Both the position numbers and the translations under genes were made by a program. From assembly GCA_041658255.1 (NCBI GenBank), contig JBBAAQ010000001.1, positions 100,368 to 164,367 of the forward strand: 64,000 nt of DNA, in the 5' to 3' direction. Below the pieces are notes generated by a model. That model worked only from the letters and a program-made list of their open reading frames with translations. It had not been told where the DNA came from and searched no databases. Of the stretch, positions 44,936 through 62,300 are shown one piece after another; positions within the stretch are counted from its first letter, which is position 1, and every line of letters starts with the position of its first letter. The stretch comes from Candidatus Woesearchaeota archaeon (GTDB lineage: Archaea > Nanobdellota > Nanobdellia > Woesearchaeales > UBA9642).

Positions 44936-45436
44936 GTGAAAGGTCTTTCAAAAAAGGAAGTTGAAATTATTGCGCATCTCGAATTTGAGCAAACGTATTT
45001 CTTTACACGAGAGACCATCAAACAATTCTTCGAAACGCCACAGCACATTTCTGACTTCATATTTGGGCTGAGAACAAAAGGTCGGGTTATCAAGATAAAC
45101 CGCGAAAAATATTATCTTATACCAATAAAATCGCGTAGTGGAGGATGGTCAGAACATCCTTTTATTCTTGCAGATGAGATATGTGATGGCAAAGATTATG
45201 TTATCGGCGGATGGGCGGCAGCAAAATATTGGAAACTTACAGAACAAATACCTGCGCAGATAGATGTATATACTACAAAGAGACAAGGCACTTATAATAT
45301 AATGAATATGCGGTTTGTGTTTCACCGGACAACTGTTCGAAAAATACGTAGTGGAGTCAAGAAAGCGATAGAACAACATCCCTTCGCAATTATTTCAAAA
45401 GACGAGGCTAAACAATGGTACAGACAGAGAAAGTAG
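44936..45436 (+). CDS. AbiEi-like antitoxin / transcriptional regulator (putative)
   Basis: 166 aa; overlaps the start of an AbiEii-like NTase gene, as in type IV AbiE TA loci. Confidence 0.5.
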   Translation: MKGLSKKEVEIIAHLEFEQTYFFTRETIKQFFETPQHISDFIFGLRTKGRVIKINREKYYLIPIKSRSGGWSEHPFILADEICDGKDYVIGGWAAAKYWKLTEQIPAQIDVYTTKRQGTYNIMNMRFVFHRTTVRKIRSGVKKAIEQHPFAIISKDEAKQWYRQRK

Positions 45437-45846
45437 ACAAACAATTTATTGCAGACTTAGTCGGAAAAACTTCATTTAACGAGACGCTTCTCGCTAAGGA
45501 TTATTATATCACAAGAATACTCTATCTTTTAAAAGATATAAAGGGAATATATTTCAAAGGCGGAACAGCGCTTCAGAAAATATTTCTCAACCATTCACGA
45601 ATAAGTGAGGACATAGACTTTACACTAAAAAAATCAGTCTCAGAAATTAGGAAGGAGATAACGCAGATAATACATTCATCAAAATTATTTGGGACGAATC
45701 CGTTTAATCCCTTGTATTGCGGCATTTCTGATTTCGGGGTCCGCACTTACCGGACATATTTTTGGATAGTGTGGTCCGTGAGTAAGAAGATATTTACTGT
45801 TTTTCTTCATATTCCGACCAATCGACATGCCACATATAATTGCTAA
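45415..45846 (+). pseudogene. AbiEii-like nucleotidyltransferase toxin, 3'-truncated (only ~90 aa of the NTase N-terminus is intact)
   Basis: YFKGGTALQKIFLNHSRISEDIDF is the AbiEii/DUF1814 signature; the reading frame then degenerates where a minus-strand transposase remnant begins. Confidence 0.55.
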
Positions 45847-46234
45847 TTGGCCACTGATAACGAACATATGTGCGTTGTCTCCTGCGATTAACACAGGGTT
45901 CAGTCAATCCTTCCGTATCAAGAATTTTTTGTATTTGACGTTGAGAAGCAGTAAAACCAGCTCTTTTCAAAACATAATGTAATTTTTCTGCACCATAATC
46001 ATCACGACGTCGAATATCAACAACCCTCTTAACAAACGATTTGTTTAATGGCAAAGGAGGTCTACCGACCTTCTTTACCACATAAGCTAAGATGCCTTTT
46101 CGTTTAAATTTATCAGCCAAATAGTAAACCATTTGTCGACTTACTTTTTGAACACGTGCAATGCTTGTTGCACTCTTATTTGCACGAAACTGTTGAATAG
46201 TCCACTTACGCTTCTTTTCGGTCAATTTTTCCAT
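45685..46234 (-). mobile_element. IS transposase remnant (HTH N-terminus intact, DDE region frameshifted/truncated)
   Basis: 146-aa ORF with an HTH (IARVQKVSRQMVYYLADKF) ending around W-H-V-D-W-S; downstream coding continues in another frame (45685..45894). Confidence 0.5.
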
Positions 46235-46356: not shown

Positions 46357-47376
46357 TTGAGTATATTATTGCAAATGAAAAAAAACAAGCTATTATTCGC
46401 TGCGGAACAATTATTGAGTATTAATTTACACGTAAAAAGAACCGATATACTTTTGCTTATTTATGATTCACAAACGAAAAACTTCTTTACCTACATAAAA
46501 AAAATTCTTGCTGAAAAAAAAATAGTGTATTATGAACACGTACTTGACATGTATTCAAGACCTGCAATCATGACTCCCGCAATGGCAAATAAACTAAAAA
46601 TATGTACGATTACAATCTATGGCTGTAAATGGGTTTTTGGCGAACATGAATCGTTTGCGTCACCATTATTACGTTTAGTAAAAAAATATCAGATTACACA
46701 CGTACATATGCCGGGATTAAATGATGCAATTATTAGATCAGGATTATCTGTAGATTACACAAAAGTTGCACAGTTTACCCGTAAGATCCATCAAAAGATG
46801 TTGCATAAAAAAAGCATGGTAATACAGAGTGCTGCAGGAACAAATTTAACCATTTTATTCAACCCCAACTATACGTTTGTTGCTGATGATGGAATCTTTC
46901 ATAAGGGCGGCTTAGGAAATCTTCCAGCAGGAGAAGTATTTACTTGCCCGCAACAGGTTAACGGCGTATTATGTGTTGATGGCGTTATAGGCAATCTTGT
47001 ACACCTCGACCAAAAATCACTACAAGCAACTCCGCTCAAAATAGTTATAAAGAATTCTCGGATCGTCGCTATATCCTCAAAAAATAAGAAACTCGTTACT
47101 GCATTTAAAAAAACGGTGTATAGTTGCAATAATGGAGATCGAGTAGGGGAAGTTGCTATTGGTACAAACATCTACATCCCGCAATTATTGTATGAACCAT
47201 TACACGATGAAAAATTTCCTTCATTTCATATGGCGTTTGGCGATCCAATCAGTACATTAACGAAAGCTACATGGAAAAGCAAGATACACGTCGATTGCAT
47301 TATTCTTAAGCCAACCATCATTCTTGATTTAGAACTAGTTATGGATAATGGAATATTTCAACATACTCATAATTGA
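46357..47376 (+). CDS. aminopeptidase, M29 (AmpS/aminopeptidase T) family
   Basis: NLPAGEVFTCP, GEVAIGTN, DEKFPSFHMAFGDP match conserved M29 blocks. Confidence 0.6.
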   Translation: MSILLQMKKNKLLFAAEQLLSINLHVKRTDILLLIYDSQTKNFFTYIKKILAEKKIVYYEHVLDMYSRPAIMTPAMANKLKICTITIYGCKWVFGEHESFASPLLRLVKKYQITHVHMPGLNDAIIRSGLSVDYTKVAQFTRKIHQKMLHKKSMVIQSAAGTNLTILFNPNYTFVADDGIFHKGGLGNLPAGEVFTCPQQVNGVLCVDGVIGNLVHLDQKSLQATPLKIVIKNSRIVAISSKNKKLVTAFKKTVYSCNNGDRVGEVAIGTNIYIPQLLYEPLHDEKFPSFHMAFGDPISTLTKATWKSKIHVDCIILKPTIILDLELVMDNGIFQHTHN

Positions 47377-48314
47377 ACAATAACATCAGAATTTTTTATA
47401 TACTTACGATATGGAGTACTATTAGTATAAATGCCTTTTTTTGTAGTGAACTGTTTTTTTACATTAAAAGAATCAGTCGTGGTTATACGAATAAATGACG
47501 AGCGGAGTAAAATATCTTTTTCATATGTGTTGAATTCGTCATATAAAAAATCAATATAGCATCCGCATCGAATAATGATTTTTTGTATTTCATAAAGCAA
47601 GTATTTTGTAGTATGTTTACAATAATCCACTTCTAGAAAATTAGGCATGCTCAAGTAAATATGACGACCGGGTTTTTTCTTCAGCAGACGCAATGATTGA
47701 TAAAGGAATAATTTTAATCCTTCAAGGCTATAGGGTGGATCAATAATAACGACGTCAAATGTATTAGTATGCATAGACATGTCTAATCTAAAATCAGCAA
47801 AAACAGTACGAACAGCAGGCATGGCACTGCGTATTTTATTAAGAACGCGTTTATCAATATCAAAAACAGTAATATTATTCATCTTGAATTTATGAAGCCA
47901 GAATGAATTAAAATCAGAATCTCCTAATATTGCAACGGCATTCTTTTGGTCATATTGTTCTTGAGCAATAATTCTCGTTCGTGCAAAAGCTGTCGCCTTT
48001 GTTGCACGAGTTTGATCAATACATTCATTATCAGAAGGTAGATCTTTATAAAAGGATTGTATTGTAACAGAATCGATGACCGCATACGGTTTTTTTGAAT
48101 GAGCAGAATTTTTCGATAACAAATACTTATTGAGTAGTTGTTCTGATTTTTTTGTGATTTGTAAACCGGATTTATTTTTTCGGAGGTAACCTTTTAGCAA
48201 TAGTGTATTTTGTAATTCTTTACTTGTAATACTAGTATTAGAAGTTTTTGCAGAGCAAACTGTATCTAATACATGGATAAGATCACGAATATCGATATAT
48301 GATTGATGCTTCAT
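47367..48314 (-). CDS. class I methyltransferase-fold protein with a DPPY motif and N-terminal wHTH-like region (DUF43/aminopropyltransferase-like?)
   Basis: VVIIDPPYS; AILGDSDFNSF; ATGA-style overlap with the upstream MetRS-like gene. Confidence 0.45.
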   Translation of the reverse strand: MKHQSYIDIRDLIHVLDTVCSAKTSNTSITSKELQNTLLLKGYLRKNKSGLQITKKSEQLLNKYLLSKNSAHSKKPYAVIDSVTIQSFYKDLPSDNECIDQTRATKATAFARTRIIAQEQYDQKNAVAILGDSDFNSFWLHKFKMNNITVFDIDKRVLNKIRSAMPAVRTVFADFRLDMSMHTNTFDVVIIDPPYSLEGLKLFLYQSLRLLKKKPGRHIYLSMPNFLEVDYCKHTTKYLLYEIQKIIIRCGCYIDFLYDEFNTYEKDILLRSSFIRITTTDSFNVKKQFTTKKGIYTNSTPYRKYIKNSDVIVQL

Positions 48315-49618
48315 AGTGTGCTACCTGTCATAAGCATAGTAATACTATTTTTTTGATCAGTAACAAAAGGCGTCAACATGTAATCAAGGGCGTTGAAAAG
48401 AGTTGTTTTATAAGAGTTATCCCAATTATTCGAATGTGCAAGTACCCTGAGTTGTTTTGAAATATTAAAAATTTCGTCGACAGCCTTATCTAATCGATAG
48501 TGATTCATTGCGTTATCGTACTGCACAACATGTGTAACATATTCTTCTTTAGAAAGTTTAACAACAGGTTGGGCGAAATATTTTTTTAACGGAGCAAATT
48601 TATTATGCACAAGTCGTTTGAATGCAACATACTCATCTTCAGTAAATGTTGAATTATTAAAAGGATTTTTTTTGTAAAATAAGTAGAGACGTAAATAATC
48701 TGCTGAGTCTGTTTTTAGTATGCTGTCAAAAGTAGTATTGAATTTAGTCTGAAAATAGCCGTGAAATAATATGTCTTTAGGTAACGGCTGGTCTAATGCC
48801 TCTAATAATCCAGGATAATTAATGAGATGTGGTAGTAATGTCGTTGGACCGCACACATGAATGTTGGTGGTTTTGTCATTGGCAAAGTGCAAATCGGTTG
48901 GTTGAATATATCCGATTAATGCATCAAACCACGAATATAATCGCGATCCGTCACAAAGTATTCCTTGCACATTTGAATTGCGGGTAATACAAAAGTCCTT
49001 TAAACCTTCCCGGATACTATTACGTAACTCGATCTTACGACTTTCAGGAAATACGTGTATGACGTTTAGCGCAGTTATGATTGCATCAGAATATTTAGTA
49101 GTATCAAAAAAGACTGCGGTTTCGGAATGAGTTATAGTTTCAACAGGGTTCTTTTTACGTATTCGTTGACTAATAAATGAACCAGTTAATGGATCATAAT
49201 CCCCGCGATACTCTCCAACATATAAATCGTGGTGTTCTTTTAAGAGCATATACGCATCTTTTACCGCAGCAATATGTTCTGAAGAATATGTTTTAACAGT
49301 GATAGTATTATGAGGTGCTAACACATCAAGTAGTGATTGCATTTTATTTCGATATTCAAAAAGATGCTCTTCCACAGCACCATCGCGCGGGATAGCGCAC
49401 GTATTTTCGTCCAGTCCATAAATATACTTGCACAGATGTTGATTATTTATAAAATATTTCTTGATAATATCGCTCATCACCATTTCATAGATGATCCCAA
49501 TATGTATCGGGCTTCCTGATTCTACAAAATCGGAGAAAATAGCATAATTAGCCATTGACCTTACCTTCAGAATACCAATATTTGATGAGTTCTTCAAGTA
49601 AATGGAAGTATAATTCAC
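48311..49618 (-). CDS. class I aminoacyl-tRNA synthetase-like paralog, MetRS-like catalytic core with a degenerate KMSKS (probable start at Met22, 49555)
   Basis: PIHIGIIYEMV (HIGH-like), LYSWFDALIGYI (MetRS YVWFDALxxY block), LFHGYF; no Zn knuckles or anticodon-binding domain apparent. Confidence 0.5.
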   Translation of the reverse strand: MNYTSIYLKNSSNIGILKVRSMANYAIFSDFVESGSPIHIGIIYEMVMSDIIKKYFINNQHLCKYIYGLDENTCAIPRDGAVEEHLFEYRNKMQSLLDVLAPHNTITVKTYSSEHIAAVKDAYMLLKEHHDLYVGEYRGDYDPLTGSFISQRIRKKNPVETITHSETAVFFDTTKYSDAIITALNVIHVFPESRKIELRNSIREGLKDFCITRNSNVQGILCDGSRLYSWFDALIGYIQPTDLHFANDKTTNIHVCGPTTLLPHLINYPGLLEALDQPLPKDILFHGYFQTKFNTTFDSILKTDSADYLRLYLFYKKNPFNNSTFTEDEYVAFKRLVHNKFAPLKKYFAQPVVKLSKEEYVTHVVQYDNAMNHYRLDKAVDEIFNISKQLRVLAHSNNWDNSYKTTLFNALDYMLTPFVTDQKNSITMLMTGSTL

Positions 49619-50837
49619 AAGAATAAGGTGTTTTACAACGTGAGGGTTCGCTAGCAGGCATATTTAATGCGCGATCTAAGCAACCACCCCCGCAGGCAAC
49701 TTTTATACTACAAGAATTACAATGTAATAATTTATTATACAACGTATGAATATGTGCTATTTTCGATGCAGAAAGTTGTAACTTATTCTTTTTTTGATCA
49801 AACATTCCAACGATAAATGTGCTACTTAATGGATGATTTGCATATGAGCATTCAAAACATTTTGATACGCTTCCATCGGGATTTATAACAAAAAAATCAT
49901 CCTTAAAAATTGGGCAAGTAATAGGAGTCTCTAATAAAAAATGGGTGTAAACAAGATTAAACACAGTCATTCCGCGCGTTTTACCATATTTAATCATTTT
50001 TACAAATGTTTTTGAAAATTCTTTAGGATTGCAGACAAATGAATTATTTTTTCCCCGCCCCGCAGCTAATATCGGTTCTGCATGTAAGAATCGCACACCG
50101 AATTTAGCATAATAATCGATAATTTTTTTGTATTCTTTTAACATCGGTGCAGTCATGGTTATCCTGACTTTAAAGAATGCGTTATTTTTGACAAGATACG
50201 CTGCGGTTTTTTCTACATTGCTAACACTAGATGATCCATTAACAAATGGCCGGTTTTTCGATTGATATAAACCATCCCAACTAAAATTAATGATGAATTT
50301 ATTTGCAATGATAAAATCTGCAAATTTTTGCGAAAAAACCCCGTTGGTTGATATTGAAAAAGAGAACTCTTTATCGCTAAATTGTTTGCAATATTCTACT
50401 ATAGATTTTATTGTAGGATAACATAGAGATGGTTCCCCTCCAAAGAAATTTAGAACATATTTTTTCTTATTTAATGCAATTCTATCTGACAAAATTGCAA
50501 TAATTGTTTCTTTAGTTAATATTGTTTTCTCGCTATTTGCATCAATAAAGCAATATACGCACTTCAAATTACATGCTTTTGTCAGGGTGAATGCAATATA
50601 GGAAGTATCCGCATCAGCTAAATGTGTTAATGGATTTTGGAGCGAATTATGTTTTAATAAATTTTTTAATTCTCCTGCAATATGCTCTTTAGTTTGAGTA
50701 GCGTCAAATTCAACTATCTCTTTAGTAGACCCTAAATATACTAAATACTTATTTCGATATTTAACTAAAGGTAATCCTAGTATCGAATCCATAACCCCCT
50801 CACAATAATAAAAAAGAAATAATAAATTTACGAACAC
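49548..50837 (-). CDS. radical SAM enzyme with a C-terminal SPASM domain (peptide-modifying maturase-like); probable true start ATG at 50792
   Basis: CNLKCVYCF (CxxxCxxC); C-terminal Cys cluster CNSCSIKVACGGGC...C..C; annotated start is GTG. Confidence 0.8.
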   Translation of the reverse strand: MFVNLLFLFYYCEGVMDSILGLPLVKYRNKYLVYLGSTKEIVEFDATQTKEHIAGELKNLLKHNSLQNPLTHLADADTSYIAFTLTKACNLKCVYCFIDANSEKTILTKETIIAILSDRIALNKKKYVLNFFGGEPSLCYPTIKSIVEYCKQFSDKEFSFSISTNGVFSQKFADFIIANKFIINFSWDGLYQSKNRPFVNGSSSVSNVEKTAAYLVKNNAFFKVRITMTAPMLKEYKKIIDYYAKFGVRFLHAEPILAAGRGKNNSFVCNPKEFSKTFVKMIKYGKTRGMTVFNLVYTHFLLETPITCPIFKDDFFVINPDGSVSKCFECSYANHPLSSTFIVGMFDQKKNKLQLSASKIAHIHTLYNKLLHCNSCSIKVACGGGCLDRALNMPASEPSRCKTPYSCELYFHLLEELIKYWYSEGKVNG

Positions 50838-50914
50838 ATATTAGACAAATTAGCAAATTTCTCTAATTCTTCTTGTTTTCCTAACACGTTATTGGATAGT
50901 TTTACAACTTTCAT
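50828..50914 (-). CDS. 28-aa candidate precursor peptide MKVVKLSNNVLGKQEELEKFANLSNMCS
   Basis: strong SD GAGGGG 7 nt upstream of the ATG; lies immediately upstream of the rSAM/SPASM gene; C-terminal Cys-Ser. Confidence 0.4.
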   Translation of the reverse strand: MKVVKLSNNVLGKQEELEKFANLSNMCS

Positions 50915-51142
50915 GTTTTCGCCCCTCGATTAATGAAATTATAATCGATAATAATAGTGTAGTTCTGTTATTTATATACCTTTCGCTTTTTAACACGTAT
51001 ACCCCGTAAATTTTCCGGTTCTAATTCACAATATTAAAATACTTCTTCTGCTTTAGGATAGTAAGATTGTGCATACTATTTAAGTGCGCTCCGAATCGTA
51101 TACACGCGAGACGATTATTATGCTCGGAATTATTCTCTCCTC

Positions 51143-51820
51143 TCAGAATTGATTCAGACTCTTCTGTTTCAATTTAATATTGTATGACTCAGGATTGATG
51201 ATCATGTCGTCCTTTGCAGCAAGGATTTGCGTCTTGAATGGAATGTTTTTTTCTTGGAGCAATCTCTTTATCTCTCGCGTTACTTCTAATGGATCTTTGA
51301 CATCATGAGTAAAGTTTGTTAAGATATACAGTTCAGGATTGATCTGTTGTACTAATTCTACGATTTGTTCTTTGCTTAATGTATGTTCTCTGCTCGAATA
51401 TTCGCTGATGATGATATTGGTGTCTTTCAACTCCTCAGCAAGTTTTTTCGTGTAAGTGATTGTTGTGAAGTACGTGAGCATATATTTATGTGTTTTTATC
51501 TTAAATGCTAAAGAATCAAGTTTTGTCTGGATGAAGATAATATCCTTTTTTGGTTCTGGATTCTTTGGAGTGATAAACCTTGCGTGAGATATCTTCTGGA
51601 GATATGCTGCATCATTCGTGTAGATATCGTCTTCTTCTGTCGCAAGGATGAAATCTAATTCCTCGATTTTAGCTTGAAGTTTGGCGAGTTGAATGATTGA
51701 GCCGATTCCCGGATTGATAAGAATTTTCTGTTCATTGACGAGGAGAATCCCGCCTGCACTGCGCCCCTTTTGCATACTTTGGTAATCACTTCCACTTCCT
51801 AAGAAAATGATCTGCGACAT
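51143..51820 (-). CDS. hypothetical protein with a weak metallo-beta-lactamase-fold-like N-terminus lacking HxHxDH
   Basis: IIFLGSGS..GRSAGGILLV..ILINPGIGS pattern; no His cluster. Confidence 0.35.
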   Translation of the reverse strand: MSQIIFLGSGSDYQSMQKGRSAGGILLVNEQKILINPGIGSIIQLAKLQAKIEELDFILATEEDDIYTNDAAYLQKISHARFITPKNPEPKKDIIFIQTKLDSLAFKIKTHKYMLTYFTTITYTKKLAEELKDTNIIISEYSSREHTLSKEQIVELVQQINPELYILTNFTHDVKDPLEVTREIKRLLQEKNIPFKTQILAAKDDMIINPESYNIKLKQKSLNQF

Positions 51821-51892
51821 AATAGTTATAATCCTTCAAACTTTATTAAGATTGTTGTTGTGGAATAGGGTTATTACGGATTATAGCAATTT

Positions 51893-52013
51893 CATGAGTG
51901 CAGTATTCATAGCAATGATTGCTGTTAAAGTCAATAATGTGTTTTTGAGTTTACTCATACTTTCTCTAGGATGTTACTATTTATAAAGTTTACTGAAGTT
52001 ACCACTAGAAAGG
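51893..52013. repeat. 121-nt duplicate of the promoter plus signal-peptide 5' end of the gene at 52744..54204, copy 1 (encodes a 25-aa remnant MSKLKNTLLTLTAIIAMNTALMKLL on the minus strand)
   Basis: ~85% identical to 54139..54259. Confidence 0.7.
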
Positions 52014-52294
52014 AGCAACATAGAAAGATTTATATATGTGTTATCACATACTTATGTGTAAAGGTGATCATTATGAGTAATATAACATTATCAATGCCAA
52101 ACGATGTTCATTTGCAGATGAAAGAATTTTCCGAAGTGCGATGGAGTGAAGTTGCGCGTAAAGCGATTATAGAAAAACTTGAAACATTGCGCATGGCTGA
52201 ATCGTTAGCGAAAAAAAGCAAACTTACAGAAAAAGATGTTCAAGATTTTAGTAAAAAAATTAATACCCTTGCTACAAAGAGGATTATGAAATGA
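51971..52294 (+). CDS. antitoxin-like small protein (VapB/RHH-type); probable start 52073 after an AAGGTGA SD
   Basis: MSNITLSMPNDVHLQMKEFSEV..; stop overlaps the PIN gene start (ATGA). Confidence 0.5.
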   Translation: MLLFIKFTEVTTRKEQHRKIYICVITYLCVKVIIMSNITLSMPNDVHLQMKEFSEVRWSEVARKAIIEKLETLRMAESLAKKSKLTEKDVQDFSKKINTLATKRIMK

Positions 52295-52719
52295 ATATTG
52301 TTCTAGATTCGAACATACTCTTTTCAGCACTCATTAAAAATTCTACAACTAGAAAAATAATTCTTGATTATGACGGATTCTTCCTCTTTCCATCATACAT
52401 ATTTATCGAGATGGAACATCATAAAGATGAATTATACAAAAAATCTGAACTTTCAGAAAAAGAATTCGATGATCTACTCCATTTAATTCTTTAAAAAGTA
52501 TTAATCGTACCACACGCAGTCATACAACCGCACATTAAAGAAGCAATTATTATTGCTCAACCTATCGATATCAATGATATGTTATTCATCGCATGCGCAC
52601 TCGCATATCATAAAAGCATCCTCTGGTCGAATGATAAGAGATTAAAAACACAATCAAGAATTCGCGTGTTGAATACTCGAGAAATAATTTTATATTTCCA
52701 GGAAAAACAAAAATCTTGA
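52291..52719 (+). pseudogene. vapC: PIN-domain VapC-like toxin interrupted by an in-frame TAA at 52492-52494
   Basis: N-terminal MNIVLDSNILFSAL (PIN Asp box); the same frame continues after the TAA: ..DINDMLFIACALAYHKSILWSNDKRL.. to a TGA at 52717. Confidence 0.55.
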
Positions 52720-52743: not shown

Positions 52744-54204
52744 TTACGGATTATACTTATCTCTCATCACTTGTTCTAGACTTTTATTGCTTAGTGCAGT
52801 GTATGTTGTTCCGTCATGTCTGGTGAGTATGATCATTGTTGCATTTCCGCTTGTTTTTCCGAGATAATTTTGCCAACTCGGTGCGATTTCCATTTGTTTA
52901 GTTGAGTCCCACTTTGTGTTTGGCGGATTCATGAAATGTGCTTGTAACATTGTGATATCGATTGGATTTTTGAAATCTTTACCAAGGTTTCCTACTGCCG
53001 AGTTGAATAGTCCATTATAGTCTGGATCGTCGTTTCTTCCGAAGTATGTTTCTCCTGTCATTACTTCTTTGGTTAATGAAACATCCATAGCATATAACCC
53101 GAATGTTAAATTCTCGCTTTTGAGATATGCTTGATCGTATACTGTTGCTGCTCTGTTTATTATTCCTGTTGTTGTGTTGAAGTCTACTACTGTTGCCGCT
53201 GCAAATCCTCCTGCGTCTCCAAATCCTATTTGGTGCATTCCGTTCGGCGTGTTTGGATATTCTTGTCCTGTTTCGAATTTTTTGTTTTTGAAATACGTTG
53301 TGTCGAGATTGTTTATTTTAGCGTTTTGGATGAGTGTTGCTTTTTGTTTGTATATTTCGTAGAATTGTTTTTGTACAGCATTGAGTGTATCGACTACAAA
53401 ATGTGCTGTTAATGGCTTGAGAGTTCTTACATTACCTTTTTGTGTAGGGTCCATCTTGCTTAGTTTATTATACTTTTCCATCACACTCGCAGGCATGTTT
53501 GTTTTGTCTTTTATGTATTGATCTATTGTTGTATCCTGACTGGTAGAGAATGTTGTTTGCCATCCCCAGATGTTTTGTCCTTCGATAGTCATTGTGTATT
53601 CTGTTCTTCCTGTTGTTTTTCCTAGTCGTTGTTGTTCTGTTCTCGCGTTTATTTGTTCTTGTAATGCGCGTTCTAGTGTTTGTGGGTTTTCGCGATGTAC
53701 TATTGATGTTTTTCCTGCTTTGAATTTTCCTTCTTGTTCTATAGTATATGGATATATCCCGCTGCTTACACGCGCTCCTGCATCATTTTTTTTATCCCAG
53801 TAGAGTCGGTGTCTTCCTGCGCTTTGTTCTGCATTGTAGAGTTCGCGTATTTTTTGTCCGAGTATATTGAATACTGTGATTTTTGTTTTTGCTGTTTTTG
53901 GTAGTGCGTATTCTATTGTTCCTTCTGCTGCTATTGTTTCTATTCCTGTTATTGTTTCAGTATTTTCTTTATCTTTTATTCCTGTTACGAGTAGATTATA
54001 TCGCCCTTGGTTATCTGTTCTTGTCGTCTGTGTATTAATAGGATTATTTTTTTCCGCAATAGTCACAGTCACGTAGCTTGCAGGTTTCTTGTCGAATATT
54101 GATTTGATTGTTCCATTAATATTTCTATAAGATTGTGCCATGAGCGCAGTATTCATAGCAAGAATTGCCGTCAAAATCAATAATGTATTCTTGAGTTTAC
54201 CCAT
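52744..54204 (-). CDS. secreted protein with an N-proximal FlgD-Ig/T9SS-sorting-domain-like beta-sandwich
   Basis: signal peptide; KITVFNILGQKIRELYNAEQSAGRHRLYWDKKNDAGARVSSGIYPYTIEQEGKFKAGKTSIV. Confidence 0.5.
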   Translation of the reverse strand: MGKLKNTLLILTAILAMNTALMAQSYRNINGTIKSIFDKKPASYVTVTIAEKNNPINTQTTRTDNQGRYNLLVTGIKDKENTETITGIETIAAEGTIEYALPKTAKTKITVFNILGQKIRELYNAEQSAGRHRLYWDKKNDAGARVSSGIYPYTIEQEGKFKAGKTSIVHRENPQTLERALQEQINARTEQQRLGKTTGRTEYTMTIEGQNIWGWQTTFSTSQDTTIDQYIKDKTNMPASVMEKYNKLSKMDPTQKGNVRTLKPLTAHFVVDTLNAVQKQFYEIYKQKATLIQNAKINNLDTTYFKNKKFETGQEYPNTPNGMHQIGFGDAGGFAAATVVDFNTTTGIINRAATVYDQAYLKSENLTFGLYAMDVSLTKEVMTGETYFGRNDDPDYNGLFNSAVGNLGKDFKNPIDITMLQAHFMNPPNTKWDSTKQMEIAPSWQNYLGKTSGNATMIILTRHDGTTYTALSNKSLEQVMRDKYNP

Positions 54205-54259
54205 ACTTTCTCTAGGATGTTACTATTTATAAAGTTTACGGTTGTTACCACTAAAAAGG
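54139..54259. repeat. 121-nt repeat, copy 2 (native promoter/5' end of the 52744..54204 gene)
   Basis: aligned to 51893..52013. Confidence 0.7.
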
Positions 54260-54326: not shown

Positions 54327-57300
54327 TTGATAAAAAGTAGTGTGAGGCGGTTGATGATGAATAAACGCGTACTATATTTATTCTTTTTATTATTTATTTT
54401 AGGGATGTTATCTATTTTTATTATTCCTTATGTTTCTGCTGCTACAGCTGTTGCGGGTGATGAAGGTAGTGGTGGTGGTGGTACTTGTATTCCTACTACT
54501 TGTACTGCTTTGGGTAAGACTTGTGGTTCTTGGAGTGATGGGTGTAGCGCAACATTGAACTGTGGTACATGCAATTCTGGGTATACGTGTACGAGTGGTC
54601 AATGTGTTGCTGATGCAACTTCATGCACTACCACTGGTTGCTCTAATGGATATATTTGTGATCTTTGGGGTGGTGTATTTGCATCACCCTATTGTAGTTG
54701 TCCGAGCGGAACAGTACAAATTACTCATTATGATTATACTCTTAATAGAACGATTATTGATAGAACATATACGGGATATCAGGGGTGTAGTGTTGAAGTT
54801 TCCCCGGGTGTGTGGACTCAAATACAATGTGTAAATACTCAAACAGATAGCCAGAATTGTGGTTGGTGTGGGAATGCTTGTTCATCAGGTCTTTCCTGTG
54901 TTAGTGGTAATTGTCAATGCCCGACAGGTCAGACATTATGTAATGGTGCATGTGTAGGTACTGTTAGCGATCCTGCTAATTGTGGCAGGTGCGGCAATGT
55001 TTGTTATGCGCCTAATACGAAATGTTATTCAGGGTCTTGCGTGCAATGTATAAAAGCAATATTTGATTGTCCTGATGGACCTTATGAGTGTATAAATAAT
55101 CGATGTGTTCTACGTTGTGAAAGTCCAAATTTTTGTGGACCGGTAAATTCACTTAATACGGATTCTGATGAAGATCGCAAAGCCAATTGTGTAGGATCAG
55201 ATTGGTGTCTTTCATGCATTAACGGTTATGCTAATTGTAATGCGAATAGTGGTTGCGAGACAGACATCACTACAACAAGTAATTGTGGAAGTTGCGGGAA
55301 TGTATGTACTGCATCAAATCGTTGTCCTGCAGGTACAAGTACACTATTTTATATCTCTCCGACATGTAGTGGTACTTGCGGTACAGTATCGACTGGAAGT
55401 AGTCCATGTGCATCATCTTCATATTGTTCAAATAATATTTACTATATCCAACCCGGAGTATGTAATGGTCTGGGAACAGCATGCGCATTAGGTATAGCAC
55501 AGGCGCAACCAAGACTTGGAGAAACAAAGAGCTGTATTGATTCTTCCACACTTAGAACGACAACGTATAATACCTGTGATGCAAATGGGTATATAGGAAC
55601 ATCTAACGATGTGAATTGTCCTGTGGTTTATGGTGCTGGTTGGACTTGTCAAGTTGTTTTTGGTGTTCCCCAATGTAAGAGGCCACAAACTTTCTGGTGG
55701 AAAATGGATTCTGATGGCGATGGACATTATGTTGGTTCAGCAGTGGAAAGTAGTACATCTCCTGGAACAGGATATGTGGTTGTTTCTAGTCAAAATGTGC
55801 TAAGCGATGATTGTAATGATAATAACGCCGCTATCTATCCTGGAGCGACTGAATTATGTAATGGTGTTGATGATAATTGTGTGAATGGTGCTGATGAAAC
55901 TTTTGCACTTGGTGAAGTGTGTTCTTCTCCTGCAAATAATTGTGGCAAGACTAGTCTCGGGAATACAGTGTGTAATACTGCGCAAACTGGCGTAACTTGT
56001 AATGCTCAGAAACCTGCTGACGCATCACCTGCACCAAACACACCATATACTTCTCCTGCAAATAATTGTGGTGCTACCAATACTGGCGTATATGTATGTA
56101 ATGCAGATAAGATAAGTACCTCAGGCAATGTTCAGAAGCCTGTTGATGCTTCTCCTGCTCCGAATACTGCGTGTACTTCTGCTCCGAATAATTTAGGCGC
56201 TACTGCTTCTGGTTATTATCAATGTAGTGCTGATAAACTTTCTACTTATTGTAATGCAGTAAAGCCTGCTGATGGGTGTTCAGGCACTCCTCCAACAACA
56301 TCGTGTGGTACGTGTGGAACAATGACTGCTCTGTGTAGTGGAACAATCTGGACGTATACTGGTGCATCTTGTTCGTCTACAGGTACAACGCAACCACAAT
56401 CCTGTCTTGCAGTTAGTGGTTGTTCTGGTTCATTGACACAGACATGTACACTTCAAGGTTCGAATTATAATTGGGTTAGTGGTTCATGTTCATCATTATT
56501 AAATTATTGTGCAGGTACATGTATTGCTGCAGCATGTTGCACATTGAATTCAGAGTCATGTAATGGTGCCGACGACAATTGTAATGGTATTATTGATGAT
56601 CCTTGGAAGAGTGGTAGTCCAAAACTTGGTGATTCATACACTTCTCCTGCGAATTCTTGTGATGCAAAAAATTCTGGAACATGGGTGTGTAACAATGATG
56701 GTTCTGGAATAACAGGTAGTGTTGCTGCACCTGCAAATCCTTCTCCTGCTCCAAATACTGCTTGTACGTCTTCTGCAAATTCTTGTGGTGCGACAAATAC
56801 TGGAACATATTTATGTGCTGCTAACGGACTCTCAACTTCTTGTTCTGCTTTCGCACCTCCAAATCCTTCACTTGCTCCAGGAACTGTATGTACTTCTCTT
56901 CCCAATAATTTAGGTGCTACTGCTCAAGGTCAGTTTCAATGTAGTGCTGATAAACTTTCTACTTATTGCGATGCCATAACTCCTGCTCCTGGATGTACTG
57001 GTTCTGCGCCTACAACATCGTGTGGTACGTGTGGAACAATTACTGCTCTGTGTAGTGGAACAACATGGACGTATACTGGCGCAACTTGTTCAGCTACTGG
57101 TAATACGCAACCACAATCGTGTCTTGCAGCTAGTGGTTGTTCCGGTTCATTGACACAGACATGTACACTTCAAGGTTCTAATTATAATTGGGTTAGTGGT
57201 TCATGTTCATCATTATTAAATTATTGTGCAGGACAATGTACAAATCAATCGTGCTGTTCACTTCTTTCAGAATCGTGTAATGGTGCCGACGATAATTGTA

Positions 57301-60300
57301 ACGGTATTATTGATGATCCTTGGAAGGCTCCTGCTAATCCAAAACTTACTGATGTATGTACTGCAACAAATATTTGTGGTACAAATACTGGCGCGCAGGT
57401 CTGTACAGTTGATGGTACAGGAATAACTTGTTCTGTAACTCCTCCGGTGATGCCACTTAATTATGGGACACCTTGTAATTCTACTCCAAATAATTGTGGG
57501 ACTACAACTCCCGGAACTATAAAATGCGATGGAACATGTTCAGCGACTAAACCTCTTGATGTTGCAAGTTGTTGTGCAGGTACTCCTGCATCAAGATCAT
57601 GTACTGATCCTAATTGTGGTACTCAAACACAATTATGTTCAGGATCTGTATGGACTTATACTGGCGCATCATGCGCAGGTACTGGTGCTACAACAACACA
57701 ACCCTGCACGATCAATAGTTGTTCTGGAACGCAATCACGTAATTGTCAGTTAAGTGGTCTCTGGACAGGATGGGGTACATGCGTTGCAACTAATCCTCAA
57801 CAAGAAACCTGTAATGGCGTAGATGATAATTGTGATAGTAAGATTGATAATGAATTATCCCTTATTTCACGATCATGTACTGTTGGTAATGGTTCATGCA
57901 CGCGCACAGGAACGCAGACACAAGTATGTAATGGTATTTCTGGTCTAGGTTGGGGTGTATGTAGTGTAACACCTGGAACTCCAACAGCTGAAACATGTAA
58001 TAATATAGACGATAATTGTGATGGAACAGTTGATGAATGGCCAACATGTAATATTTGTGGCGATAATCGTTTAGGTGGTAGTGAGCAATGTGATGATGGA
58101 AATACAGTAAGCGGTGATGGTTGCAGTGCAACTTGTAGAACAGAAGGTGATGGTTCATGTAATAGTCTTTGCGGATTATTATTCCCTGCATGCCAATCAG
58201 GATTTTCTTGCGAATGGTCTGGGATAGTACAGCGTTGCAGAAATACTGCTTGTTCAACAGATTCAACATGTGGTTGTTGTACTCAATCCGGATGTAATGA
58301 TAATAATGGATGTACAACTGATGTGTGCACTACTGGTGTTGGTTGTAGTAATGCTGCACGTACTGGTGCATCATGTGGTACAAATCCTTTGGCATGTAGT
58401 GAAAATCTTGCAGTTATCAAGAATTATGCATGTAGTGCGACAGGTTCATGTGATGATGCTCTTGCATCAGACACTACAACAAATTGTGGTAATACGAATT
58501 ATTGTTCAGGATTTACTAATACATGTGTTGCATGCGCGTCTAATACTGCAAATTGTGATCAGGCTAATGCTGACTGTGAATCTCATTTATTGACTGATAT
58601 GAATAATTGTGGAACATGCGGGAATAAGTGTGGTGCAAGCCAGACATGTAGTGCAGGATCGTGTGTTACACCAGGTACATGGTATCGCGATGTTGATGGT
58701 GATGGCTACGGTACTCCTGCAAATTCAGTACTCAATCTCACTCAACCTGCAGGGTATGCAAATAATCCTGCTGATTGCAATGATAATAATTTTGCAATTA
58801 AACCGACTGCAACAGAATATTGTGACACTATAGATCAAAATTGTAATGGATTAATCGATGAAACATGTGATAAAGATGGTGATATGTATGCTGATCCTAC
58901 ACTTGCCTGTGTGGGAAGTTTTAGGGCAGGAAATGGTTTAATCTATGGTTGCGCGACTAATGGTCTTGACTGTAATGATAATTCTGCAACAACTTATCCG
59001 AATGCTCCAGAGATCTGTGGTGTCCGTGGTGGTAACGGGATCAAGGAGAATTGTGCTGCCAGCGTAGCAGATGTTGGTTGTAGTATTTGTGGTGATAAAA
59101 CCATCAATACACCCAATGGTCTTGGAGTAAATGAGGAATGTGATTATGGCTCGTGGTGTATGACAAATTTAGGAGTTAAAACTGTTTGTTCGCAAGATAC
59201 TGATTGTGCAGGGATCGGCGACGGATTATGTCTTCCGCGTGACAGTGTGAATTGTTCAGCACAATGTATGAGTACTGGTTGTGCTATCACTGGTCTTAGT
59301 ATTACTCCTATTGATTGTCAAGATAGAGCTATCGATGAAAAGATTTGTACAACAGGAAACACACTCAATATTTCGATACAATTTAGCGGCGCAGATTGCG
59401 CGAAAGCAAATATTGTACAAATAGACTACCATGATCAAAATAGAACATGTATGATTACTACTACCAGTACGCAAATTTTGGGGATAACAAAATCTTTCTT
59501 TACCGGAGGAAATGGAACATATGTATTTACCTATGTATTCCCGACAATACCTTCTTCATGTAGTGGTGCACCACTTAAACAGGCAGAAGCAGGGCTCTAT
59601 ACCGGAAACATTGCAAATATGCAAACAACATGGATTCAAAGAACAAACAGTATCGCTCCATTCCCAGGAATAAGCCCGACAGTCATACTTTATGATGCGT
59701 CACAACTCTGTACTGCAACTTGTCCGGAAGCTGCAATACTTGCAAACGAATTAGGAACATATACTGATATTGCAACTGCAGTAAAAACAAATCCTGCAGC
59801 AAAACAGAAATTTATGAACTTCCTGAAGAACGAAAATTGTTTCACGAGAAGCGCGCAAAAACTCAGAAATGCATATTGTGGTTTTGAAAAAAATACTGCT
59901 ACGAACGTCATTACTTATAAAACAAATACTACAGTAAAAATAGGGTTACCGTCACTAAAAGAAATAGAAGCGTCATGTACGATATTATATCCTATCGGAG
60001 CAGCACCAACGATTAGCGTCAGTGCAAAAGGCGGGTCTGGAACATACCATTATGCATACACATTTGGAGACGGAAAAACAGTAAATAGTACCACATCAAC
60101 TGCTACGATACCCAATGCGACACAAACGACAGGAGGATATGAACCAAGAGTTATAATAACTGATAGCAAAAGGAATACGAGAGAAATTGTTTGTCCAAAA
60201 ATTAATATAACCAGCACCGATTCATCTTCCAGAGGGTATTGTGGTGATGGAAAATTAAACGATGGTGAATATTGTGATTACGCAAACACTACAATGGTTT

Positions 60301-60530
60301 CTGGCGGAAAGAATGGGGCACTACTCATCAATTCGCGTGAACCAGGAAAAACGTCATGTGCGCAATTATTTAGTACATCAAATTATTGGAATGAACCTAA
60401 TGGCCAAACAGGATCTGCTGGCGCAGCTATCGCGCGATGTAATGATCAGTGTCAAGTGCAATGTCAATTATATGTGAGTGGTACTAATACAACAATTGTA
60501 ACGAAATCATGGAATGGAATAATGCCGTAA
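54327..60530 (+). CDS. giant (2067 aa) Cys-rich secreted/anchored surface protein with MopE-like putative metal-binding repeats and CGDG Cys-rich repeats
   Basis: N-terminal TM/signal; recurring NCG.CGN.C; C.NG.DDNC.G..DE (MopE-like); ICGDN..GSEQCDDGN..GDGCS; internal near-identical ~106-aa modules. Confidence 0.7.
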   Translation: MIKSSVRRLMMNKRVLYLFFLLFILGMLSIFIIPYVSAATAVAGDEGSGGGGTCIPTTCTALGKTCGSWSDGCSATLNCGTCNSGYTCTSGQCVADATSCTTTGCSNGYICDLWGGVFASPYCSCPSGTVQITHYDYTLNRTIIDRTYTGYQGCSVEVSPGVWTQIQCVNTQTDSQNCGWCGNACSSGLSCVSGNCQCPTGQTLCNGACVGTVSDPANCGRCGNVCYAPNTKCYSGSCVQCIKAIFDCPDGPYECINNRCVLRCESPNFCGPVNSLNTDSDEDRKANCVGSDWCLSCINGYANCNANSGCETDITTTSNCGSCGNVCTASNRCPAGTSTLFYISPTCSGTCGTVSTGSSPCASSSYCSNNIYYIQPGVCNGLGTACALGIAQAQPRLGETKSCIDSSTLRTTTYNTCDANGYIGTSNDVNCPVVYGAGWTCQVVFGVPQCKRPQTFWWKMDSDGDGHYVGSAVESSTSPGTGYVVVSSQNVLSDDCNDNNAAIYPGATELCNGVDDNCVNGADETFALGEVCSSPANNCGKTSLGNTVCNTAQTGVTCNAQKPADASPAPNTPYTSPANNCGATNTGVYVCNADKISTSGNVQKPVDASPAPNTACTSAPNNLGATASGYYQCSADKLSTYCNAVKPADGCSGTPPTTSCGTCGTMTALCSGTIWTYTGASCSSTGTTQPQSCLAVSGCSGSLTQTCTLQGSNYNWVSGSCSSLLNYCAGTCIAAACCTLNSESCNGADDNCNGIIDDPWKSGSPKLGDSYTSPANSCDAKNSGTWVCNNDGSGITGSVAAPANPSPAPNTACTSSANSCGATNTGTYLCAANGLSTSCSAFAPPNPSLAPGTVCTSLPNNLGATAQGQFQCSADKLSTYCDAITPAPGCTGSAPTTSCGTCGTITALCSGTTWTYTGATCSATGNTQPQSCLAASGCSGSLTQTCTLQGSNYNWVSGSCSSLLNYCAGQCTNQSCCSLLSESCNGADDNCNGIIDDPWKAPANPKLTDVCTATNICGTNTGAQVCTVDGTGITCSVTPPVMPLNYGTPCNSTPNNCGTTTPGTIKCDGTCSATKPLDVASCCAGTPASRSCTDPNCGTQTQLCSGSVWTYTGASCAGTGATTTQPCTINSCSGTQSRNCQLSGLWTGWGTCVATNPQQETCNGVDDNCDSKIDNELSLISRSCTVGNGSCTRTGTQTQVCNGISGLGWGVCSVTPGTPTAETCNNIDDNCDGTVDEWPTCNICGDNRLGGSEQCDDGNTVSGDGCSATCRTEGDGSCNSLCGLLFPACQSGFSCEWSGIVQRCRNTACSTDSTCGCCTQSGCNDNNGCTTDVCTTGVGCSNAARTGASCGTNPLACSENLAVIKNYACSATGSCDDALASDTTTNCGNTNYCSGFTNTCVACASNTANCDQANADCESHLLTDMNNCGTCGNKCGASQTCSAGSCVTPGTWYRDVDGDGYGTPANSVLNLTQPAGYANNPADCNDNNFAIKPTATEYCDTIDQNCNGLIDETCDKDGDMYADPTLACVGSFRAGNGLIYGCATNGLDCNDNSATTYPNAPEICGVRGGNGIKENCAASVADVGCSICGDKTINTPNGLGVNEECDYGSWCMTNLGVKTVCSQDTDCAGIGDGLCLPRDSVNCSAQCMSTGCAITGLSITPIDCQDRAIDEKICTTGNTLNISIQFSGADCAKANIVQIDYHDQNRTCMITTTSTQILGITKSFFTGGNGTYVFTYVFPTIPSSCSGAPLKQAEAGLYTGNIANMQTTWIQRTNSIAPFPGISPTVILYDASQLCTATCPEAAILANELGTYTDIATAVKTNPAAKQKFMNFLKNENCFTRSAQKLRNAYCGFEKNTATNVITYKTNTTVKIGLPSLKEIEASCTILYPIGAAPTISVSAKGGSGTYHYAYTFGDGKTVNSTTSTATIPNATQTTGGYEPRVIITDSKRNTREIVCPKINITSTDSSSRGYCGDGKLNDGEYCDYANTTMVSGGKNGALLINSREPGKTSCAQLFSTSNYWNEPNGQTGSAGAAIARCNDQCQVQCQLYVSGTNTTIVTKSWNGIMP
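56180..57620 (+). repeat. tandem ~720-bp intragenic duplication (two ~240-aa modules, cores >90% identical at the nucleotide level)
   Basis: 56278..56522 and 56995..57240 nearly identical (..TTSCGTCGT.TALCSGT.WTYTGA.CS.TG.TQPQSCLA.SGCSGSLTQTCTLQGSNYNWVSGSCSSLLNYCAG..). Confidence 0.75.
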
Positions 60531-62042: not shown

Positions 62043-62300
62043 CTCATCTCGTGCTAGACTGGGCGGTTAGTCCTCGCCTGTTACTCCAAACGGACTTTAG
62101 GGAGGGTCGAAGCCTAGGGAGCGGTTTTATGGATAGTGGCAGTCCTTAACGTACTGTCGATCCTTTGTCCTCTTTGACTTTTTTCCTTACGAACCGGATC
62201 AGACCAGGAATGGAGCAGTCCTCAGTTTTGAGAAGGGTGCTTTGAGGGTTGCGGAGGGGAGGGAAATTAAGGAACCAACTGTTCACTATCCACATCATCC
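62043..62300 (+). ncRNA. ffs: candidate SRP RNA (GC-rich island with a domain-IV-like motif)
   Basis: ccGGAUCAGACCA-GGAA-UGGAGCAGUCC resembles SRP helix 8 (GNRA-type loop, 5' UCAG / 3' AGCAG asymmetric loop); pyrimidine-rich strand opposite GGAGGGGAGGG suggests G-U-rich helices; local GC far above background; boundaries approximate. Confidence 0.45.

Follow-up and report, generated by a model that had tools for sequence, protein, structure and literature searches.

Several peptide pathways built around a radical SAM/SPASM maturase have been described. In the ranthipeptide/sactipeptide systems PapA/PapB and SCIFF (CteA/CteB), a short precursor gene is found directly upstream of, and in the same orientation as, the gene of the maturase, and the precursor core is Cys-rich or made of CX3D/E repeats. 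The anSME enzymes oxidise a Cys or Ser side chain within a peptide segment. In the PQQ (PqqA/PqqE) and mycofactocin (MftA/MftC) pathways, the C-terminal residues of a 20-35-aa precursor are processed by a radical SAM/SPASM enzyme, after which a peptidase frees the small molecule, and the operons hold several enzymes that are not typical of RiPP clusters. Pearlins are made by a further peptide natural-product pathway, in which the PEARLs are LanB-like and not of the aaRS fold. DPANN archaea have tiny genomes and are, to our knowledge, thought to be almost devoid of secondary metabolism. Finally, a role as peptide ligases outside translation has been predicted for paralogues of MetRS (Aravind et al. 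2010, PMC2922099); the published paralogue is a bacterial protein whose strict partners are a cupin and a lysine N6-monooxygenase (PMC2922099). Literature searches on MetRS- and aaRS-like proteins from RiPP or radical SAM clusters gave only this bacterial paralogue.

The DNA analysed here is a stretch of 64,000 nt (the window) from a Woesearchaeota MAG (DPANN), in which the following features were identified:

46357-47376, plus strand: M29-family aminopeptidase-like protein, 339 aa (Pfam Peptidase_M29, 9.4e-13)
47367-48314, minus strand: BpsA_C-like (former DUF43) putative SAM/dcSAM-dependent transferase, 315 aa (Pfam BpsA_C, 8.7e-18)
48311-49555, minus strand: MetRS-like class-I synthetase paralogue, 414 aa (Pfam tRNA-synt_1g, 8.5e-21)
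49548-50792, minus strand: radical SAM/SPASM enzyme (rSAM), 414 aa (Pfam Radical_SAM, 1.6e-13, above the cut-off)
50793-50827, minus strand: T-rich 35-nt spacer between the small ORF stop and rSAM, ATTTATTATTTCTTTTTTATTATTGTGAGGGGGTT, with a T6 run and the rSAM Shine-Dalgarno sequence (SD)
50828-50914, minus strand: candidate precursor/scaffold peptide ORF (the small ORF), 28 codons plus stop, translation MKVVKLSNNVLGKQEELEKFANLSNMCS
50922-50927, minus strand: Shine-Dalgarno-like GAGGGG of the small ORF, with a 7-nt spacer (cgaaaac) to its ATG
50969-50976, minus strand: candidate archaeal TATA box TATAAATA, 55-62 nt before the small ORF ATG
51143-51820, minus strand: 225-aa protein upstream of the small ORF, at a distance of 228 nt

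As in PapA/PapB and CteA/CteB, a short co-oriented ORF lies directly upstream of a radical SAM/SPASM gene, here with its own SD, the adjacency that is looked for in a RiPP precursor. We give about an even chance to the reading that the small ORF is a real, translated precursor or scaffold peptide gene whose product is the substrate of the following operon, the whole forming an orphan archaeal RiPP-like cluster. It would differ from known ranthipeptide and sactipeptide clusters in its host, a DPANN archaeon, and in its MetRS-like and BpsA-like partners, which are foreign to them. A likeness to PQQ and mycofactocin lies in the very short precursor, the putative C-terminal processing and the operon enzymes that are not RiPP-typical; however, the peptide lacks the Glu...Tyr or Val-Tyr C-terminus, the other signature genes are absent, a PqqD/MftB-type RRE protein was not detected, and the rSAM scores best against other families.

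Position, translation signals and coding status of the small ORF

The initial annotation had reported a 28-aa ORF with GAGGGG 7 nt from its ATG and a stop 35 nt before the rSAM ATG at 50792, and these coordinates were borne out, the start ATG being located at 50914-50912 and the stop TAA at 50830-50828 of the minus strand. The ORF is also unannotated, as had been stated: it is missing among the called genes of contigs L001 and L002, which carry the same locus, and no pipeline annotates it. The exact MKVVKLSNNVLGKQEELEKFANLSNMCS was not found in a collection of 15 billion proteins, and neither the window nor the retrieved loci contained a paralogous copy of the peptide. A reading of the rSAM from GTG 50837, raised initially as one that would place the small ORF inside a longer rSAM coding region, is mechanically open (429 aa) and would extend into the small ORF by no more than its final 10 nt. 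This objection does not apply, since the GTG has no SD, the ATG at 50792 has a strong one, and the latter start is common to the ENA, Logan and NCBI gene calls (414 aa). An ORF at 19073-20362 with the same two lengths (429/414 aa) was considered and set aside as unrelated, the agreement being a coincidence.

According to the chief alternative, the small ORF is not a functional gene; the promoter or 5' region of the rSAM operon would happen to contain an open frame, and the enzymes would act on a protein encoded elsewhere, on a Met- or SAM-derived small molecule, or on a tRNA bound by the anticodon-binding remnant of the MetRS-like protein. We regard this as somewhat unlikely. It is favoured by ORF length, which by itself has no significance in DNA of 38% GC, since 28-codon ORFs are common in such AT-rich sequence (13 kb of it contain 183 ORFs of 20 aa or longer). 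Against it stands the SD, which is the same rare hexamer as that of the rSAM and is ideally spaced. GAGGGG has nine occurrences in the window, both strands included (128 kb), with several copies 3-10 nt ahead of start codons; on the minus strand there are three, two of which are the SDs of the small ORF and the rSAM. Many long ORFs of the window are preceded by GAGG, GGTGA or GAGGTG cores. Among the five SD-led ORFs of 28-59 aa in the window, the small ORF is the sole one outside longer genes, which also argues against a chance frame. When the 350-nt intergenic region was subjected to 5000 dinucleotide shuffles, an ATG-initiated ORF of 28 aa or longer, preceded by an SD core at a distance of 4-10 nt, was obtained in 0.64% of them with the strict SD set and in 2.5% with the loose one. 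This is a post hoc statistic from a test designed once the ORF had been seen, a circumstance that counts in favour of chance. The small ORF thus exceeds the chance expectation in part. Its codon-usage score (2.9, compared with 7.2 ± 4.7 for real genes and -2.8 ± 5.0 for spurious ORFs; likelihood ratio about 1.3) is uninformative on its coding or non-coding status, which again leaves room for a chance frame.

The gap that holds the small ORF weighs in the opposite direction. No other gap between called genes of the 21-kb locus L001 reaches its 350 nt, most of the other genes overlapping or standing 77-252 nt apart, and such a gap devoid of a gene would be unusually long for this compact genome; if the frame were a chance one, either the 5' UTR would extend over about 155 nt from the TATAAATA box or the region would be otherwise empty. 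The three enzyme genes overlap and are translationally coupled, the rSAM stop with the MetRS-like start by 8 nt and the MetRS-like stop with the BpsA-like start by 4 nt; therefore, the intergenic region of the small ORF is the only non-coding space of the cluster in which a substrate gene could be located.

The TATAAATA box probably acts as a promoter, and from its position a leader of about 30 nt that includes the SD is predicted. The same octamer is the TATA of a duplicated promoter (51978-51985 and 54224-54231) and is found in 10 copies in the window, compared with 6.6 expected; about half of the copies precede a gene start in the matching orientation. A further TATA-like sequence, TTTATTAT, was recognised by eye about 30 nt before the rSAM ATG and could drive the rSAM independently. 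The spacer contains the rSAM SD (GAGGGGG, 50801-50795) and the T6 run, which may be a partial archaeal terminator or an attenuator. No hairpin terminator was found around the small ORF in a scan for bacterial-type promoters and terminators, whose signals remained at shuffle level and which is not relevant to archaea. RNA structure in the gap was not significant (fold z = -0.63), and an Rfam search of the gap gave no match at E<=1 to a known RNA family or riboswitch.

These features bear on a second alternative, according to which the small ORF is translated and its product is not an enzyme substrate, being either a regulatory uORF that tunes read-through or re-initiation at the rSAM, or a small accessory or unrelated protein. 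It would fit a stop that abuts the T6-containing tract 35 nt from the rSAM start, operon enzymes that are related to Met and SAM next to a peptide that ends in Met-Cys-Ser, and good translation signals in an ORF for which no RiPP-type leader or core was found. Nevertheless, we consider it quite improbable: the ORF has only one internal Met and one Cys codon, whereas classical attenuation leaders contain runs of the regulatory codon, the gap with its z-score showed neither alternative hairpins nor a terminator-like one, and the rSAM needs no coupling to the small ORF because it is served by its own strong SD.

The peptide compared with known precursors

The reading of the small ORF as a RiPP precursor gene was sustained in part. 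The ORF itself, its SD, its position, the type of the neighbouring enzyme and the Cys-containing ORFs found beside some distant rSAM relatives (see below) speak for it, while no RRE or leader motif was found and the single Cys is not accompanied by the motifs of the nearest maturase families. Searches of precursor, leader and RRE families down to E<=10 returned no match to the peptide. The helical leader-like N-terminus that had been ascribed to it was not confirmed, as its hydrophobic moment is low (0.12-0.37) and none of the leader families matches. By eye, EELEKFA resembles the EL-x-x-Φ part of double-glycine/Nif11-type leaders; the peptide has no GG site and no HMM match to these leaders at E<=10, and no C39 peptidase or transporter was found in the cluster with Pfam. 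The failure to find a homologue, a leader motif or an RRE is in line with a chance open frame.

The only Cys of the peptide, C27, is penultimate and is not followed by Asp or Glu, in contrast to the Cys-rich or CX3D/E-repeat core of ranthipeptides and SCIFF: neither CX3D/E nor the Cys-rich tail of ranthipeptide, sactipeptide and SCIFF cores is present. The Cys-Ser end recalls the residues oxidised by anSME, but the anSME motif C/S-x-P/A-x-R is absent from the peptide and there is no sulfatase gene nearby. This motif has two matches in the neighbouring proteins, one in the rSAM itself and one in the BpsA-like protein, which on a rough estimate were judged consistent with chance. That the chemistry would be thioether formation or C-terminal tailoring, as suggested initially, is a guess.

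The radical SAM/SPASM enzyme and the neighbouring proteins

The rSAM carries the CX3CX2C cluster motif (C74/C78/C81) followed by a complete C-terminal SPASM domain with seven cysteines (C293, C312, C358, C361, C367, C371 and C392), all invariant in the alignment, an arrangement it shares with PapB and CteB. Its best NCBIfam matches are PapB (NF047865, 2e-32), the nif11-type maturase, anSME (TIGR03942, third), HxsB and the SCIFF maturase. It lies far under the curated NCBIfam cut-offs for all 25 listed families of named maturases, which sets it apart from PapB (112.7 bits vs 340), the SCIFF maturase (64.9 vs 425) and anSME (84.6 vs 349) alike. Among PDB entries, CteB is the first match by sequence (7.8e-16), followed by anSME, while the Foldseek matches comprise anSME, CteB, ChlB, TigE, SuiB and SkfB, with anSME 4k36 as the best (E 2e-14, TM ~0.62-0.70) and CteB among the top ones. 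The placement of the enzyme in the peptide- or protein-modifying radical SAM/SPASM group was therefore upheld, since its closest matches by sequence and fold (PapB, CteB, anSME) all modify peptides or proteins. This argues against a chance open frame, although anSME, the top structural match, modifies full-length proteins, as would be expected if the substrate were encoded elsewhere.

No PqqD/RRE match was obtained on N-terminal segments of the rSAM, even at E<=10. The N-terminal domain of about 60 aa, modelled by AF2 as four strands and one helix with moderate confidence (pLDDT 54-81), is ~35-40 aa shorter than that of CteB, from which the rSAM also differs in that an RRE was not detected. 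As RRE-independent maturases exist, this does not exclude a peptide substrate. A role in a defence system (pVip and others) was rejected after a PADLOC search, which gave a generic match to the rSAM core only (pVip 7e-16, residues 66-261) and no partner matches; the SPASM domain is not a feature of viperins.

The MetRS-like protein departs from a methionine--tRNA ligase in its signature motifs, as the alignment shows HIGI in place of HIGH and a shorter, substituted loop (TKFNTT) at the position of KMSKS, and its NCBIfam MetRS score is 110.4 bits against a cut-off of 598. Its HMMER alignment to the PDB MetRS 7wpi stops just short of the KMSKS region. The protein has kept part of the amino-acid pocket and the Trp of the anticodon domain and has lost the adenylation loop; since KMSKS and the second His of HIGH are missing, a working synthetase is unlikely. 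It resembles the paralogue of Aravind and colleagues in being a class-I synthetase paralogue inside a putative peptide-metabolite cluster, but is accompanied by an rSAM instead of a cupin and a monooxygenase, and ATP-dependent ligation is doubtful because of the loss of KMSKS and half of HIGH.

The third gene of the operon encodes a protein that falls within BpsA_C (PF01861; 64.9 bits vs a gathering threshold of 27) and is accordingly a putative SAM/dcSAM transferase. It aligns across the Rossmann domain of BpsA, the N4-bis(aminopropyl)spermidine synthase, with DID and DPP kept and GDDD partly kept as GDSD. The PDB matches (BpsA 5xnc, and 2qm3) reach only ~7e-8; the N-terminal region is shorter than in BpsA, there is no NCBIfam match, and the context is an rSAM operon and not polyamine genes. 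The three enzymes are all tied to Met or SAM chemistry, for which a peptide is not required, a further point on the side of a chance open frame.

At the two ends of the cluster, membership is uncertain. The M29 gene, convergent with the BpsA-like gene (their ends overlap by 10 nt), is also found beside the cluster on the independent contig L002, and its product is a possible leader-trimming peptidase. The 225-aa protein had no match in Pfam, NCBIfam, PADLOC or PDB, and its AF2 single-sequence model was unusable (pLDDT 42). It was considered as a degenerate metallo-beta-lactamase/PqqB analogue; this was rejected, as there were no Pfam or PDB matches, the pLDDT was 42, and a BLAST comparison with the metallo-beta-lactamase adjoining the rSAM P0011 was insignificant.

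A proposed pathway and the relatives of the locus

If the small ORF is a precursor gene, its expression and processing could proceed as follows; we infer these functional steps from the sequence anatomy, which is the part directly observed. Transcription would start about 25 nt downstream of the TATAAATA box (50976-50969), giving a short leader with GAGGGG from which the 28-aa peptide would be translated. At the T-rich tract past the stop, only part of the transcripts would continue into the coupled rSAM/SPASM, MetRS-like and BpsA-like genes. The rSAM/SPASM enzyme would abstract an H atom from the C-terminal part of the peptide (...FANLSNMCS), most probably to give a thioether from Cys27, or an oxidised Cys27 or Ser28, as with its nearest relatives PapB, CteB and anSME. 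The BpsA-like protein would transfer an alkyl group, methyl or aminopropyl, from SAM or dcSAM, the MetRS-like protein would be a binding subunit, an adaptor or a non-canonical ligase, and the convergent M29 aminopeptidase may trim the leader.

A more specific version of this proposal, in which the peptide is a scaffold and the rSAM/SPASM enzyme, the MetRS-derived protein and the BpsA-like protein together make a peptide conjugate, or a small molecule derived from Met/SAM, out of its ...NMCS end, following the logic of mycofactocin, PQQ and pearlins, is in our estimation very doubtful. If true, it would give the DPANN archaea their first RiPP-like pathway, and a class-I synthetase pseudo-enzyme would for the first time have a part in peptide maturation. 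A functional peptide-modifying rSAM operon would in any case be unexpected in DPANN, the more so together with a degenerate MetRS paralogue and a polyamine-synthase-like transferase, and the operon could reveal new roles of synthetase-derived pseudo-enzymes.

The locus also occurs on two other contigs, L001 and L002; with 100% identity to the window, they offer no population variation for analysis. In a search of 5.8 billion clusters, the rSAM retrieved itself, followed only by matches of <=29% identity, and the MetRS-like protein retrieved itself only. Nothing was found when GTDB genomes were scanned for the rSAM or the BpsA-like protein, or JGI metagenomes for the BpsA-like protein, and none of the collections searched contained an orthologous locus in which the ORF and its NMCS end could be compared. 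Because the cluster has no relatives in public data, conservation offers no confirmation of the ORF or of the gene cluster. Its singleton nature limits the practical value of the locus, which is at present a candidate for heterologous expression.

When 1.84 billion representatives were searched exhaustively with HMMER for the MetRS-like protein, only 271 matched at E<=1e-10. One partial relative, P0013, has the same altered KMSKS loop and a different N-terminal half, and is located on a 1.7-kb contig with no rSAM nearby. Six distant relatives of the rSAM were examined for their gene context. Three had contexts without an obvious precursor, so that half of those examined lack an adjacent small ORF, as a chance open frame at the present locus would lead one to expect; the other three (P0002, P0004 and P0009) are each adjacent to a Cys-containing ORF of 48-54 aa.

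Small open reading frame upstream of the radical SAM gene

The source of the DNA is an uncultured DPANN archaeon, whose domain is established by an archaeal SRP RNA at 62047-62320 (+, 116.5 bits); the 64-kb window yielded no tRNA genes. The radical SAM (rSAM) protein encoded here has the same sequence as NCBI MFA5796575.1 ('MAG: radical SAM protein [Candidatus Woesearchaeota archaeon]'). Two further contigs carry the locus and match the window at 100% identity: one of 86.9 kb in ENA and one of 5.7 kb in Logan, the latter coming from another run. The following features are discussed:

51143-51820, minus strand, gene for a 225-aa protein
50914-50828, minus strand, small ORF of 28 codons, candidate precursor, product MKVVKLSNNVLGKQEELEKFANLSNMCS
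49548-50792, minus strand, rSAM/SPASM enzyme (414 aa)
48311-49555, minus strand, MetRS-like protein
47367-48314, minus strand, following the MetRS-like gene, BpsA-like transferase

The minus-strand sequence reads ...TCGAGGGGCGAAAAC-ATG AAA GTT ... ATG TGT TCG TAA-ATTTATTATTTCTTTTTTATTATTGTGAGGGGGTT-ATG GAT TCG..., in which 7 nt separate GAGGGG from the downstream ATG of the small ORF and 35 nt lie between its stop and the rSAM ATG at 50792; all that the initial annotation had stated about the 28-aa ORF, its Shine-Dalgarno (SD) motif and its spacing to the rSAM gene is borne out by this sequence. It had also considered that the small ORF might start inside a longer rSAM gene read from GTG 50837. 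This GTG, the start of a mechanical 429-aa extension, has no SD before it, while ATG 50792 is preceded by GAGGGGG and is the start used in three independent annotations, which places the small ORF in intergenic sequence and not within the rSAM gene. No annotation pipeline called the small ORF, and its exact peptide sequence was not found among 15 billion proteins. On the plus strand opposite to it (50826-50914), one frame is open throughout (IYEHILDKLANFSNSSCFPNTLLDSFTTF, codon score 0.7); having neither start codon nor SD context, this frame is probably meaningless.

Chance occurrence or small gene

The most likely reading, to which we give about even chances, takes the small ORF for a genuine gene and its product for the operon's substrate; it is plausible and partly supported. 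Should the ORF be due to chance, the operon would act on a non-peptide or distant substrate, which we consider less likely. By its length the ORF would not stand out, given that 13 kb hold 183 ORFs of 20 aa or more, and the translation signals weigh more heavily. Many long ORFs in the window have GAGG, GGTGA or GAGGTG cores 4-10 nt 5' of their start, indicating that the organism uses SD-led initiation. GAGGGG occurs nine times in the window (both strands counted), and two of its three minus-strand copies stand before the small ORF and the rSAM gene. A test devised after the small ORF had been seen used 5000 dinucleotide shuffles of the 350-nt gap; under the strict SD set 0.64% of them, and under the loose one 2.5%, contained an ATG-initiated ORF of 28 aa or more preceded at 4-10 nt by an SD core. 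Among the 55 SD-led ATGs in the window, 18 open ORFs of at least 100 aa and five open ORFs of 28-59 aa; four of these five lie inside longer genes, the small ORF being the sole intergenic one. That it is translated but serves in a regulatory or accessory role instead appears improbable.

No other space between called genes of the 21-kb locus is as long as the 350-nt gap (the others measure 77-252 nt or are overlaps), and neither Rfam families nor a stable RNA structure, both of which were sought in this gap, accounts for it. A TATAAATA box lies 55-62 nt 5' of the small-ORF ATG, and this octamer also serves as the TATA of a promoter present in two copies, at 51978 and 54224. The codon-usage score of the small ORF, 2.9, falls between those of real genes (7.2 ± 4.7) and of spurious ORFs (-2.8 ± 5.0) and does not discriminate.

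Enzymes of the operon and proposed pathway

The rSAM enzyme carries CX3CX2C at C74/78/81 and seven more invariant cysteines in SPASM arrangement (alignment A2, of the rSAM). Its top NCBIfam matches are PapB (2e-32), nif11-type maturase, anSME, HxsB, DynA, CefB and SCIFF maturase, each scoring far under its cut-off; CteB and anSME are the best PDB matches by sequence, and the best structural matches of its AF2 model (pLDDT 67, with a good core and a poor SPASM domain) are anSME, CteB, ChlB, TigE, SuiB and SkfB. These matches place the enzyme in the peptide/protein-modifying SPASM group, yet outside every named family. AF2 models the first 60 residues of the enzyme as four strands and one helix, not as a winged-helix RRE, and an HMM search found no RRE.

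The MetRS-like gene (414 aa) overlaps the rSAM stop by 8 nt. Its highly divergent product (271 matches at E≤1e-10 among 1.84 billion representatives) retains the GxDE, WFDAL..Y and downstream His signatures (alignment A1, of the MetRS-like protein), has HIGI for HIGH and shows a shortened TKFNTT for the KMSKS loop; the HMMER alignment to MetRS structures stops just short of this loop. In E. coli MetRS numbering, D52, W253, A256, Y260 and H301 are kept, and Y15, H24 and K335 are absent. Judging from these motifs, the protein is probably not a working synthetase. Among the 1.84 billion representatives, a TKFNTT-like loop is shared only by P0013 (TNFKNS), a chimeric protein of 321 aa (locus L006, 538-1503) with a different N-terminal half containing a hydrophobic segment, encoded on a 1.7-kb contig without an rSAM gene; the two form a small lineage of degenerate domains derived from MetRS. 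There is a published precedent for a MetRS paralogue within a cluster for peptide metabolites, bacterial and with other partners (PMC2922099), and no literature report was found in which a MetRS-like protein and an rSAM/SPASM enzyme are coupled. The BpsA_C-like gene overlaps the MetRS-like stop by 4 nt, and in its product (315 aa) GDDD is changed to GDSD, with the DID and DPP motifs retained.

From these genes we infer each functional step of the following pathway. Behind a short leader with its SD, the small ORF would be translated, and the T-rich tract 3' of its stop may limit read-through. In view of its relatives, the rSAM enzyme would most plausibly act on the C-terminal segment of the peptide, where Cys27 would become part of a thioether or, alternatively, Cys27 or Ser28 would undergo oxidation. 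The part envisaged for the BpsA-like enzyme is the addition of a SAM- or dcSAM-derived group, and for the MetRS-like protein that of a binding or adaptor subunit. By eye, and without support from any model, EELEKFA in the peptide is similar to the EL-x-x-Φ stretch of leaders of the double-glycine or Nif11 type and F20-A21-N22 matches the aromatic-x-Asn pattern of three-residue cyclophanes; both resemblances are leads only. The cluster would work in the manner of a RiPP cluster of the sacti-, ranthi- or SCIFF type or of a peptide-derived cofactor pathway, but it falls under the score cut-offs of each named family, has no Cys-rich core and shows neither an RRE nor the signature partner genes. 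If real, it would represent an rSAM RiPP-like cluster with unusual partners, hosted by a DPANN archaeon.

Relatives and genomic setting

The nearest rSAM relatives are at most 29% identical to the enzyme of the window. The same gene trio (rSAM, MetRS-like and BpsA-like) was sought in protein collections, GTDB genomes and the JGI metagenome set, yielding no locus; the locus of the window is a singleton in the collections searched. Gene contexts were taken in for six distant rSAM relatives (P0002, P0004, P0005, P0006, P0009 and P0011). About 90 nt upstream of P0002 and P0004 there are 48-aa ORFs with the end ...AITCDCVCV(G/N), and a 54-aa ORF with the end ...APCCRCGDEYSEAH lies directly downstream of P0009; no evident precursor was found beside P0005, P0006 or P0011. 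The wider rSAM family is thus often, not always, paired with small Cys-containing ORFs, none of which resembles the 28-aa peptide.

On a bacterial metagenome contig (L007/L008, 3571-7221), a full-length CysRS gene (477 aa) extends 4 nt into the start of the P0005 gene, whose product shares 29% identity with the rSAM of the window and which is followed by a second rSAM gene. A relative of this rSAM is thereby coupled, in a second case, to the gene of a class-I synthetase, and the coupling may be a coincidence.

An M29-type aminopeptidase gene is convergent with the cluster, and family, PDB and AF2 comparisons gave no identification for the 225-aa upstream protein. GC content is 31-35% in the cluster genes versus 38% in the window, and the flanks (44936-46234 and 52073-52494) contain an AbiEi/AbiEii pair, in which AbiEii (only 143 aa) is probably truncated, an HTH/transposase-like 146-aa gene and an RHH/PIN pair. 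Together with a duplicated promoter segment, these features suggest that the cluster region is a variable, possibly acquired island. The duplicated segment is a direct repeat of 121 nt (51893-52013 and 54139-54259, 89% identity). It comprises the promoter (TTTATAAATAG) of a 486-aa FlgD_ig gene (52744-54204, -) together with its first ~22 codons, which encode an N-terminal hydrophobic, signal-peptide-like segment; the duplicate lies 5' of the 225-aa gene, leaving a remnant ORF of 25 aa at 51881-51958. The two copies enclose the RHH/PIN toxin-antitoxin pair, suggesting a past rearrangement or insertion.

An ORF at 19073-20362 (-) was considered as a counterpart of the rSAM gene for its equal lengths (429 aa from GTG, 414 aa from ATG) and rejected; its sequence is unrelated, so the equal lengths are a coincidence. 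Divergent from the FlgD_ig gene, 54327-60530 (+) encodes a Cys-rich repetitive secreted protein of 2067 aa with Cu-binding MopE-like repeats and many CxxC-type modules.
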